DNA from: Escherichia coli
GTDB taxonomy: Bacteria > Pseudomonadota > Gammaproteobacteria > Enterobacterales > Enterobacteriaceae
Reading direction: 5' to 3' (one strand)
Assembly (NCBI RefSeq): GCF_036507355.1
Contig: NZ_AP027877.1
Length of the DNA stretch: 64,000 nucleotides
This document shows, piece by piece, positions 1 through 47,232 of the stretch (the stretch's first letter is position 1; each line of letters starts with the position of its first letter). Made by a program: the position numbers and the translations under genes. The notes below the pieces were generated by a model that was not told where the DNA came from, ran no database searches, and saw only the letters and a list, made by a program, of their open reading frames with translations.

Positions 1-239
1 CGCATACAAAACGGGTGGTAAAAAAAGCAAACGATTATCCGGCGATCATAGCGGCTTTTTCAACCGAAGTTTGCTGCTTTTTTCTCTTTTATTGTCTTGA
101 CGATGAAAAACCAGGCAATTGATGCGCAAACGTTATCGTCGATGCGCAAGATTGCAGCGTTATCGAGCCGTATACCGTTCTGGATTGCGATAAAAAATCG
201 TCTGAGATGACAAAAATATTGCGGCTAAAAAGTATACTT

Positions 240-420
240 TTGCACTGGCGAAGAAACGCCGGTGACATACAATTAAAGTATCAACACCAACCGGAACCTC
301 CACCACGTGCTCGAATGAGGTGTGTTGACGTCGGGGGAAACCCTCCTGTGTACCAGCGGGATAGAGAGAAAGACAAAGACCTGAAAACAAACTAAAGCGC
401 CCTTGTGGCGCTTTAGTTTT
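240..420 (+). ncRNA. candidate small RNA in the soxR-downstream intergenic region (position where K-12 has RyjA)
   Basis: Non-coding stretch ending in a GC hairpin plus T-run at ~395-420; TATACT -10-like hexamer near 234-239; boundaries inferred by position only, no sequence-level recognition. Confidence 0.2.
394..420. terminator. bidirectional rho-independent terminator at the soxR 3' end
   Basis: Inverted repeat AAGCGCC / GGCGCTT with 5-nt loop, flanked by A-run upstream and T-run downstream, right after the soxR stop. Confidence 0.6.
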
Positions 421-877
421 GTTCATCTTCCAGCAAGCGTGCGCCGGTACCTTCTTCTCCTAAGCGGTCGCCCGGGTTACGCAACGGGCAATCACTGCGC
501 GAAAGGCAGCCACAACCAATACATCCGTCCAGTTCGTCACGCAGCGCCACTAAGGTATGAATGCGCCGATCTAATTCTTCTCGCCATTGCGAAGAAAGCT
601 GCTTCCACTCTTTGGCGCTTAATGTATGCCCTTCGGGCAACACGCCAAACGCTTCACCAATGGTCGCCAGCGGAATGCCAATACGCTGAGCAATTTTGAT
701 AATTGCGACATATCGCAACACATCACGTTTATATCGCCGCTGATTGCCGCTGTTACGGATACTGGTAATCAACCCTTTGCTTTCATAGAAATGCAGCGCC
801 GATACCGCCACACCGCTGCGTTTCGCCACTTCGCCGGGGGTTAGCAGCGCTTTAATGCGGGGTAATTTCTTTTCCAT
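413..877 (-). CDS. soxR: SoxR, MerR-family [2Fe-2S] redox-sensing transcriptional activator
   Basis: 154-aa ORF; N-terminal MerR HTH; C-terminal [12 protein letters not shown] cysteine cluster; divergent from soxS. Confidence 0.95.
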
Positions 878-962: not shown

Positions 963-1286
963 ATGTCCCATCAGAAAATTATTCAGGATCTTATCGCATG
1001 GATTGACGAGCATATTGACCAGCCGCTTAACATTGATGTCGTCGCAAAAAAATCAGGCTATTCAAAGTGGTACTTGCAACGGATGTTCCGCACGGTGACG
1101 CATCAGACGCTTGGCGATTACATTCGCCAACGCCGCCTGTTACTGGCCGCCGTTGAGTTGCGCACCACCGAGCGTCCGATTTTTGATATCGCAATGGACC
1201 TGGGTTATGTCTCGCAGCAGACCTTCTCCCGCGTTTTCCGTCGGCAGTTTGATCGCACTCCCAGCGATTATCGCCACCGCCTGTAG
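963..1286 (+). CDS. soxS: SoxS, AraC/XylS-family superoxide-response activator
   Basis: 107-aa ORF with two AraC-type HTH motifs. Confidence 0.95.
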   Translation: MSHQKIIQDLIAWIDEHIDQPLNIDVVAKKSGYSKWYLQRMFRTVTHQTLGDYIRQRRLLLAAVELRTTERPIFDIAMDLGYVSQQTFSRVFRRQFDRTPSDYRHRL

Positions 1287-1288
1287 TT

Positions 1289-2875
1289 TTATTGCCCGCG
1301 CGTTAACTCCCGCGCGGGTAATTGCTCCATCCATTGCATAAACACCTGCGGCGGCATCGCCTTCGCAAAGAACCATCCCTGGCAATAGCGCACGCCGCGT
1401 TTGCGCAGCCAGTTTACCTGCTCCTCAGTTTCGACGCCTTCAGCGATCGTTTTTAACCCCAGGCTGTGCGCCAGCTCGATGATGTGTTCCGCAATCAAAT
1501 GACTGGTTTTGTGGGTGGTCAGCGTCTCAACAAACGATTTGTCGATTTTCAAAATATCGACATTCAATGATTTAAGGTTATGCAAGTTAGAGTAGCCAAT
1601 ACCAAAATCATCAATTGCCACTTCGTAACCGGCCTGGCGGAAAGCCAGAATAATCGGCGTCATTTTGTCGACATCAAGAAATGCATGTTCAGTCACTTCA
1701 AATTTAATTTGCTGTGGACGCACCGCGTATTGCTCTGTTTTCTGATTGGTTCGCGCTATCAACCGTGACGTATGAAAATCGGAGGCCGACAGGTTAATAG
1801 AAACATAGCGATCGGCATGTGTTGCCAGGTACGCACCCAGATCGCGGAAGACATTATCAATAACATAATCAGTTACCTGTTCGATCATCCCCTCCTTTTC
1901 TGCCAGCGGAATAAATTCTGCCGGATTCATTACTTGCCCCTGCTCACCAGGCCAACGTAACAACGCTTCAGCGCCGATACATTTTTCTGTTTTGATATCG
2001 ATTATTGGCTGGTAATAAAGACAAAGTTGATGTTTTTCGAGGGCGCGTTGCAATTTGCGTTTGGGAGACAAATAGTTTTGTCGAATACGTAGCCAGAGTA
2101 ATAGCAGAACAAGACTCCCCAAAATACCGGCGGGTAACGCAAAAATAAGATGATTATAAAAATGGGCTATAAGACGTTGATATGAAGTCGCAACAATGGC
2201 TGCAATTGGGCGTTTTGTCGAATAAACTGTCGCATATAAATAGCCATTTCTTTGTACGGTTAAATCCTTCAAATGAATCAGCGGAGAAAACGTTGCTGCC
2301 GAGGCCTCGTTGCTTAACGAGAAAAAGGTTTTCGTCACCGTATCATACACACCCCATTGCAATGTCGGGTCATCAGACATCACTTCACTCCAGAAGAGAG
2401 GGTTGATAACCGCCACATAATTTCCCCGCTGCATATAGGTCATTTTATAGCCAGAGAAAAAAGGCGTATCGCGGTAATAATAGATAGAAACGTTAGGTTC
2501 ACGCTTATAATCGGCCGGTGCAATCGTATAGCCGTTTACAGGCGCTATCAGTGATGAGCATAAAAAATGGTTATCACGGGCATAGATCAATTCATTAATA
2601 TAAAGATAGCCACGAATAATATTTAACATTCGCGTTTGATGGGCTGGAGAGCAAACTTGCCCCTGATAGCGTTCTGCTGCATCGCTCACTAAATCTGCCT
2701 GGCGAATGACCAGCTCGGATTTATCCAGTGCCAGTTGAGCAAAGGTTCGGAGCTGATTATTCACTTCTGATTTTGCCCAAAGGAAGGCAATCCATAGCGA
2801 AAGAATGATGGGAAAGAGAACTAAAAAGATAATGCCCGGCAACGCCAGTAATTGGTGTCGTGCACGATGACTCAT
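1289..2875 (-). CDS. pdeC: c-di-GMP phosphodiesterase PdeC (YjcC), CSS-motif sensor plus EAL domain
   Basis: Track ORF 1289-2884 starts at TTG; first in-frame ATG at 2875 gives 528 aa ([10 protein letters not shown]...); N-terminal TM segment; EAL motif (GAEALLRWP) and QGWFF in the C-terminal domain. Confidence 0.85.
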
Positions 2876-3303
2876 TGCTATCAATTTCCTGCCTGTTTAT
2901 ACCCGGCCATTGCAAGGTGAAACCCTGGCTACCGACGTCTTTAGATAAATCTTACGGTATAAATAGCACTTTTGCCTGATTTGAAATTGATACCTTTTTA
3001 ATCGTCACCTGGATGAAAATAATTCATTGATATTCAAAATTAATTTTCTACAGGAATACAGAGGCGGCGGGAAGATATACCCTTAATGCCACTGAAAAAC
3101 CACATAATCTGTACAGCAATAAAAGTCACGACCTAATCTGGCTAACAAACAATCAATTGTGATATAGTTCACAAAATTAATGAAACAAACAGAGTGTTTC
3201 ATTTTTGTGTTCTGCAAGCCCCGCGATAGCCAGAGTGTACCACGCCTCCCGTGAACAACGCCGCGCTGTCCAGGGCATCGGCTCTTTTCAGAGGAATTGT
3301 TTG

Positions 3304-44547: not shown

Positions 44548-44854
44548 AACAATTTCCCTTCATTGAATGAATGGAGATTTACCCAAAAACATTTCGGGCG
44601 GGATCGAGTATACACAACTAAAGCATGCGAATTACGGCGCGGGGAATTAGAGATGGGGTTTTAGGATAATTGGAATGAATATCAAATATAAGCTACATCT
44701 TATATATAAATAACATTAAAAATCATAATGTTAAAATAAAAGTAAAAGTAATTAATCTGAGTATTTTCCGAAATCAATCACGATTAAAAATCTATTTTAG
44801 GATTAACCTCACGGTATGATTTCCGTTAAATCACAGACAAGGGGATTTATCTGA

Positions 44855-44882
44855 TAAAAAAATGCCGACATAACGTCGGCAT
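44855..44882 (-). terminator. rho-independent terminator downstream of pgi
   Basis: Minus-strand ATGCCGACGTTATGTCGGCAT hairpin followed by TTTTTTT. Confidence 0.6.
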
Positions 44883-44929
44883 TGTTATTAAGGTTATTTA
44901 ATCAATCGTGCTATGTATTAATTGCCGAA

Positions 44930-45055
44930 TACGATGTACATATCGGCATCGACCTGTAGGCCTGATAAGACGCGACCGCGTCGCATCAGGCATCGGTTGC
45001 CGGATGCGGCGTGAACGCCTTATCCGGCCTACATAGCGGCATCAGGCATGAACGA
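44930..45055. repeat. REP / BIME cluster after the pgi stop
   Basis: GTAGGCCTGATAAGACGCG...CGCATCAGGCATCGG and TGCCGGATGCGGCGTGAACGCCTTATCCGGCCTACA units. Confidence 0.65.
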
Positions 45056-46939: not shown

Positions 46940-47232
46940 TAGCGCAGGCCAGAAGAGGCGCGTTGCCCAAGTAACGGTGTTGGAGGAGCCAGTCCTGTGA
47001 TAACACCTGAGGGGGTGCATCGCCGAGGTGATTGAACGGCTGGCCACGTTCATCATCGGCTACAGGGGCTGAATCCCCTGGGTTGTCACCAGAAGCGTTC
47101 GCAGTCGGGCGTTTCGCAAGTGGTGGAGCACTTCTGGGTGAAAATAGTAGCGAAGTATCGCTCTGCGCCCACCCGTCTTCCGCTCTTCCCTTGTGCCAAG
47201 GCTGAAAATGGATCCCCTGACACGAGGTAGTT
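46940..47232 (+). promoter_or_regulatory. lysC 5' leader / lysine riboswitch (L-box)
   Basis: ~300-nt structured leader upstream of lysC containing AGAGGCGC and GGAGGAGCC-type L-box segments; boundaries approximate. Confidence 0.7.

Follow-up and report, generated by a model that had tools for sequence, protein, structure and literature searches.

SraL, also named RyjA, is a small RNA (sRNA) known since 2001. It is described in the literature as a ~140-nt species (PMC3753932, PMC12956327) that occurs mainly in stationary phase in both E. coli K-12 and Salmonella (PMC3753932, PMC12956327, PMC5389530), and the E. coli RNA begins with an A, as given in a 2026 paper (PMC12956327). The sraL promoter has sigma-S-type -35 and -10 elements with a TAA motif (Silva 2013; PMC3753932). 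In Salmonella, the RNA was lost in an rpoS mutant, promoter-lacZ fusions were RpoS-dependent, and RpoS was enriched more than 100-fold at the promoter by ChIP (PMC3753932). SraL represses tig in Salmonella (PMC3753932), by an interaction of '7 and 3 bp' that was validated by compensatory mutations (PMC3753932). For rho, the work of Silva 2019, as far as it is relayed in PMC6582626 and PMC12360218, places SraL over a putative rut site of the leader, where it stops premature Rho-dependent termination. SraL levels need Hfq (PMC3753932) and, in LB, ProQ (PMC6315103). Full-length E. coli RyjA was up 3.84 log2-fold in a pcnB mutant (PMC5389530), indicating that decay of RyjA starts with polyadenylation.

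We analyzed a stretch of E. coli DNA of 64,000 nucleotides (hereafter the window), in which an initial annotation had proposed a plus-strand sRNA ending at the soxR terminator, probably the counterpart of K-12 RyjA. Rfam was scanned with a permissive threshold over the first 3 kb and with gathering thresholds over the whole window. The sraL family (RF01408) covered 280..420 on the plus strand with 151.5 bits (E=1.6e-35; model positions 1-142 of 142), compared with a gathering score of 39. In the reference annotation of K-12 MG1655, the ncRNA ryjA (b4459) lies at 4277926..4278066 on the minus strand and overlaps the end of soxR. When it was aligned to the window both of its ends coincided with those of the Rfam match, the 5' end at 280 and the 3' end at 420, and 140 of the 141 bases were identical, the sole difference being a T at position 382 where K-12 has a G. 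The Rfam scan and the alignment to K-12 ryjA, the two checks proposed with the initial annotation, were therefore both positive, and its identification of the RNA proved correct. We conclude that 280..420 on the plus strand is almost certainly the gene for the trans-acting regulatory sRNA SraL (RyjA), 141 nt in length, with the promoter and terminator given in the following list of features.

280..420, plus strand: sraL (ryjA) gene, from RF01408 and the K-12 ryjA coordinates, with A280 as its 5' end
268..276, plus strand: -10 hexamer TACAAT (268..273) followed by TAA (274..276), from conservation in 52 sequences
245..252, plus strand: conserved block CTGGCGAA, 17 nt upstream of the -10 hexamer, likely a degenerate -35 element
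281..328, plus strand: 5' domain of the RNA, with an outer helix (281-286/323-328) and an inner helix (297-300/317-320), from RNAalifold and covariation
304..313, plus strand: predicted tig-mRNA pairing region CACGUGCUCG, from a local duplex plus accessibility scan
330..374, plus strand: central domain, with a closing helix (330-332/372-374) and two hairpins (333-335/341-343 and 344-349/356-361), from the RNAalifold consensus
375..388, plus strand: single-stranded A-rich linker AAAGACCTGAAAAC, including T382, from the fold and the allele comparison
389..424, plus strand: Rho-independent terminator, a stem-loop at 389..419 (13 pairs, 6 of them G-C, with a 5-nt loop) and then a T-run
413..877, minus strand: soxR coding sequence, from the ORF list and the RefSeq and K-12 annotations, convergent with sraL
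963..1286, plus strand: soxS, a neighbour
1289..2884, minus strand: pdeC, a neighbour
207..395, plus strand: mechanical open reading frame of 62 aa, from the ORF list
160..426, minus strand: mechanical open reading frame of 88 aa, from the ORF list

The sraL locus was found in 5,420 of 5,426 complete E. coli genomes. Across the Enterobacteriaceae, sampled as one genome per species and searched with two invariant SraL motifs as the pattern, we retrieved 53 orthologous loci from genera including Escherichia, Salmonella, Citrobacter, Enterobacter, Klebsiella, Raoultella, Leclercia, Lelliottia, Cedecea, Trabulsiella, and Atlantibacter; the alignment used below comprises 52 enterobacterial sequences over the stretch corresponding to 160..439 of the window. 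PGAP-annotated RefSeq E. coli genomes (for example NZ_CP033605.1) carry no feature over sraL, despite an Rfam score about four times the gathering threshold, and ryjA is present in the curated K-12 record alone. The missing feature is a matter of annotation practice and the gene is not absent, so that a reader working from the letters of the sequence can legitimately rediscover it. The whole-window scan also placed two adjoining RNA families above their gathering scores, STnc430 at 44744..44893 on the plus strand (71.1 bits) and naRNA4/CssrE at 44959..45029 on the minus strand (79.5 bits); the naRNA4 family consists of nucleoid-associated RNAs derived from REP elements. A lysine riboswitch aptamer (RF00168) lies at 46945..47141 on the plus strand (99.5 bits) and is presumably the lysC leader.

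The 3' end of the RNA is formed by the hairpin at 389..419, followed on the plus strand by TTTTGTTC and conserved at 96% among the 52 enterobacterial sequences, which bears out the strong hairpin and T-run that had been noted at the 3' end of soxR. On the minus strand, the order is soxR stop codon, hairpin, and GTTTTC. The final 8 nt of soxR overlap the 3' end of sraL, and soxR was adjacent to and convergent with sraL in the window and in 52 of the 53 retrieved loci (53 of 54 sequences). The position of the hairpin at the soxR 3' end, together with this conserved convergence, identifies the palindrome as a shared bidirectional terminator. Such a palindrome could by itself mimic a gene, and the region might then hold no independent RNA at all, being composed of the soxR terminator with its 3' flank and the spacer upstream of ghxP. 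The hairpin is indeed a perfect bidirectional palindrome, the terminator portion of RF01408 matches its minus-strand copy with 23.7 bits, and the first 2 kb contain no more terminator-like sites than chance predicts (2 found, 2.8 expected). However, the plus-strand match spans the full 142-position model, and conservation between genera amounts to 80-93% over the 110 nt preceding the hairpin, compared with 37% for the 3' coding end of soxR in the same alignment. Covarying helices lie outside the terminator, a conserved promoter is situated at the right distance, and experiments in both E. coli and Salmonella have detected the transcript (PMC12956327, PMC5389530, PMC3753932). Reduction of the locus to a terminator was rejected on conservation, and we regard its probability as practically nil.

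In addition to its trans-acting role, and without excluding it, SraL might serve as a cis-antisense partner of soxR that modulates 3'-end formation or stability of the soxR mRNA. The 3' ends of the two RNAs are fully complementary over the terminator (~35-40 nt), through which convergent transcription or an RNA duplex could modulate soxR. The 8-nt overlap with the soxR coding sequence, the common hairpin, and a layout kept in 53 of 54 sequences are in line with such a role, and Silva 2013 (PMC3753932) terms SraL an 'antisense sRNA' opposite soxR. On the other hand, the conserved adjacency may simply reflect the common terminator, the overlap is confined to a hairpin that is stable in both RNAs, which disfavors intermolecular pairing, and an effect on soxR is unreported in the SraL literature consulted. 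We consider this additional role unlikely.

The initial annotation had drawn the RNA from 240 to 420, with a -10-like TATACT about 170 nt upstream of the hairpin. The 3' end was placed correctly, and the 5' boundary was not: the Rfam model and K-12 ryjA both begin at A280, giving 141 nt. The -10 hexamer of this shorter unit is TACAAT at 268..273, in which A269, A271, and T273 are invariant (52 of 52 sequences) and T268 is kept in 46 of 52, so that the TAnAnT positions as a whole are conserved at or close to invariance. The hexamer is followed by T274 (50 of 52), A275 (51 of 52), and A276 (40 of 52), its end lies 6 nt from the annotated 5' end, and position 280 (+1) is a purine in 52 of 52 sequences. 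A sigma-S-type promoter sequence, a -10 element plus TAA, is thus present and conserved at the right distance from +1. Together, the conserved -10 box, the purine at +1, and the published A start define the unit as 280..420 and not 240..420. Farther upstream, the block CTGGCGAA is conserved at T246 (46 of 52), G247 (50 of 52), G248 (52 of 52), C249 (44 of 52), A251 (50 of 52), and A252 (47 of 52); judged by its spacing, it is probably a degenerate -35 region for sraL. Its conservation, above all at G248, exceeds what a degenerate sigma-S -35 element needs, and the block could instead be a transcription-factor site.

TATACT itself is present, at 233..238, 151 nt before the start of the hairpin and 182-187 nt before the 3' end of the RNA, and a lone hexamer of this kind is expected by chance. 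It would lie at -47 to -42 relative to A280, is ~33% conserved, and is gapped in several species, and its role as the -10 element was rejected on conservation in favor of TACAAT. It could still belong to a 5'-extended RyjA isoform of ~180 nt starting downstream of it. TATACT matches the -10 consensus at 5 of 6 positions, as ATGACA (207..212), the sole -35-like partner of TATACT, does the -35 consensus, but the 20 nt between them exceed the range of 16-18, and for this reason the promoter scan made no call there. The weak and gapped conservation of TATACT also stands against the box at 268..273, invariant at its key positions, and a longer isoform is contradicted by the K-12 annotation, by the literature, which gives a 140-nt species with an A start, and by the Rfam model, which begins at 280. 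Such an isoform is very improbable, and A280 is retained as the 5' end.

The first positions of the window belong to the spacer upstream of ghxP, a minus-strand gene to the left of the window. This spacer contains GCAAACGTT/GCAAACGAT motifs at 27..40 and 124..138, which we take to resemble PurR operator half-sites; one of them overlaps a minus-strand promoter-like site (TTGAAA-18-GATAAT, 63..34), and in K-12 a third copy of the GCAAACGTT/GCAAACGAT type lies just left of the window.

The statement that no convincing open reading frame follows soxR held up as well. The frames of 62 and 88 aa exist mechanically, and dual-function sRNAs are known, so a small protein might be sought in the 62-aa frame, in its internal 26-aa version from ATG315 inside the RNA, or in the 88-aa frame. 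Both longer frames were present only in the window and in three near-identical Escherichia loci, and were absent from E. albertii and all other genera among the orthologous loci. No frame survives the indels of 1, 2, 5, and 8 nt found in 302..315, transcription starts downstream of ATG207, and the substitutions follow a compensatory base-pairing pattern and are not codon-like. A coding function was accordingly rejected on conservation, as the frames are not kept; we hold it to be exceedingly improbable, and the locus is non-coding.

The structure of SraL is supported by covariation. The single-sequence fold had an energy of -45.4 kcal/mol, moderately better than shuffles (z = -2.24), and the comparative evidence is stronger. 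The RNAalifold consensus of 50 orthologues (45 distinct rows) contained 34 pairs in six helices, in which 99.2% of cells form standard pairs and compensatory double changes occur in 8 of the 34 pairs (41 cells). None of 500 column shuffles, a control that ignores phylogeny, reached the observed covariation values, and sliding the 3' partners by 1-3 columns, a control that corrects for phylogeny, lowered pairing to 36-55%; the two controls agree. Among the 45 distinct sequences, the outer helix of the 5' domain showed compensatory changes in 4 of 6 pairs, and the helix 344-349/356-361 of the central domain did so in 3 of 6. In the terminator stem, 10 of 12 consensus pairs are invariant and one is compensatory. 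The three short helices, among them the closing helix 330-332/372-374 and the hairpin 333-335/341-343 of the central domain, are invariant and hence uninformative on covariation. The motif ACCGGAACCTCC (290..301), enclosed by the 5' domain, is also invariant; the search pattern, however, included it.

T382 is the single oddity of an otherwise ordinary and already-known gene. In the RNA it is position 103, part of the linker that precedes the terminator; for the soxR terminator, read on the minus strand, it comes immediately 3' of the U-tract. The surrounding GACCGG is invariant in K-12 and in 49 of 49 other species representatives. A 55-mer with the T allele, designed so that each 28-nt megablast seed spans position 382, had 0 matches in the 5,426 complete E. 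coli genomes, compared with 5,411 for the G-allele control, and a 32-mer with the T allele matched 0 metagenome contigs, compared with 92 for the G version. In ViennaRNA calculations with the G allele, a long-range helix between CCGG(291-294) and CCGG(380-383) had a probability of ~52% and, in nested folding, was iso-energetic with the covariation-supported 5'-stem fold; the contact could form as a pseudoknot together with the 5' stem. The T allele abolished this predicted contact. Both CCGG motifs are invariant, and covariation therefore cannot test the contact; the invariance of 291..294 is partly by construction, since these positions are inside the search pattern. Position 382 lies outside the best predicted tig and rho sites, and the accessibility terms shift by ~2 kcal/mol between alleles.

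T382 may reflect an error in sequencing, a private mutation that is neutral, or a variant with a functional effect. Situated at an otherwise invariant position, it could impair SraL in this genome, and it is doubtful that the change from G to T is both real and of consequence for SraL function. The nearest complete genomes were phylogroup-E strains (O145:H28, O157:H7) at ~99.5% identity, in a collection of E. coli genomes that did not include Shigella. The window also contains a complete 768-bp IS1 at 28025..28792, bounded by inverted repeats on the left (28025..28047, exact) and on the right (28770..28792). This IS1 copy and the nearest identity hint at an IS-rich lineage such as Shigella; a complete IS1 and ~0.5% divergence fit a Shigella-like lineage outside the collection, and the T382 allele may thus be lineage-specific. 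If the CCGG contact or a protein- or target-binding motif at this site is functional, the strain would be a natural SraL variant with changed tig and rho regulation or stability, and T382 could act as a natural probe of the function of the conserved GACCGG motif.

Pairing sites of SraL on the tig and rho leaders of K-12 were predicted by a windowed scan that combines duplex formation with accessibility; whole-length duplex folding against the same leaders had given meaningless 'duplexes' of 100+ nt and was discarded. The best predicted tig site pairs SraL 304..313 (CACGUGCUCG) with CGAGCACUGUG in 7+3 bp (total -10.2 kcal/mol), 18-30 nt before the ATG of K-12 tig and directly preceding its Shine-Dalgarno sequence, GAGG. 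The segment 304..313 is identical in the window and K-12, so the complementarity to the E. coli tig leader is intact, and the predicted duplex has exactly the geometry published for Salmonella. For rho, SraL 313..327 and a 13-bp partner close to the leader's 5' end make up the best predicted site. We infer by homology that regulation of tig and rho carries over from Salmonella to E. coli.

For this strain, we take expression, dependence on sigma-S, targets, and protein partners from the literature; combined with the features above, they suggest the following course of events. Transcription would start at A280 from the sigma-S-type promoter, with TACAAT (268..273) and the TAA after it, and would stop at the intrinsic terminator (389..419 and T-run), whose palindrome would also serve the convergent soxR. 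The 141-nt RNA would fold into the 5' domain, the central two-hairpin domain, the single-stranded A-rich linker, and the terminator hairpin, and, by homology with the Salmonella experiments, would accumulate in stationary phase. Nucleotides ~304..313 would base-pair with the tig leader directly before its Shine-Dalgarno sequence, lowering trigger factor synthesis, and pairing with the rho leader would block premature Rho-dependent termination. SraL would be bound or stabilized by Hfq and ProQ and turned over after polyadenylation.

Since SraL/RyjA has an Rfam family and characterized targets in tig and rho, the finding has little significance beyond correct annotation; its practical yield is a promoter -10 element now placed at 268..273 and a 5' end at 280. 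Compared with K-12 ryjA and Salmonella SraL, the locus is alike in its convergence on soxR, its terminator, its -10 box, and its tig-pairing segment, and the upstream neighbor differs from that in Salmonella, being the ghxP side in E. coli and STM4267 in Salmonella. SdsR is a sigma-S-dependent stationary-phase sRNA whose likeness to SraL is one of regulation class only: with such RNAs SraL has RpoS-dependent stationary-phase induction in common, but there is no sequence relationship and the targets are others. ProQ-associated sRNAs such as RaiZ are likewise structured, end in an intrinsic terminator, and associate with ProQ and/or Hfq, whereas their sequences and targets differ from those of SraL. 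In its reported action on a leader, SraL resembles DsrA, ArcZ, and RprA, which block premature Rho-dependent termination in the rpoS leader in the same manner; the target of SraL is rho itself.
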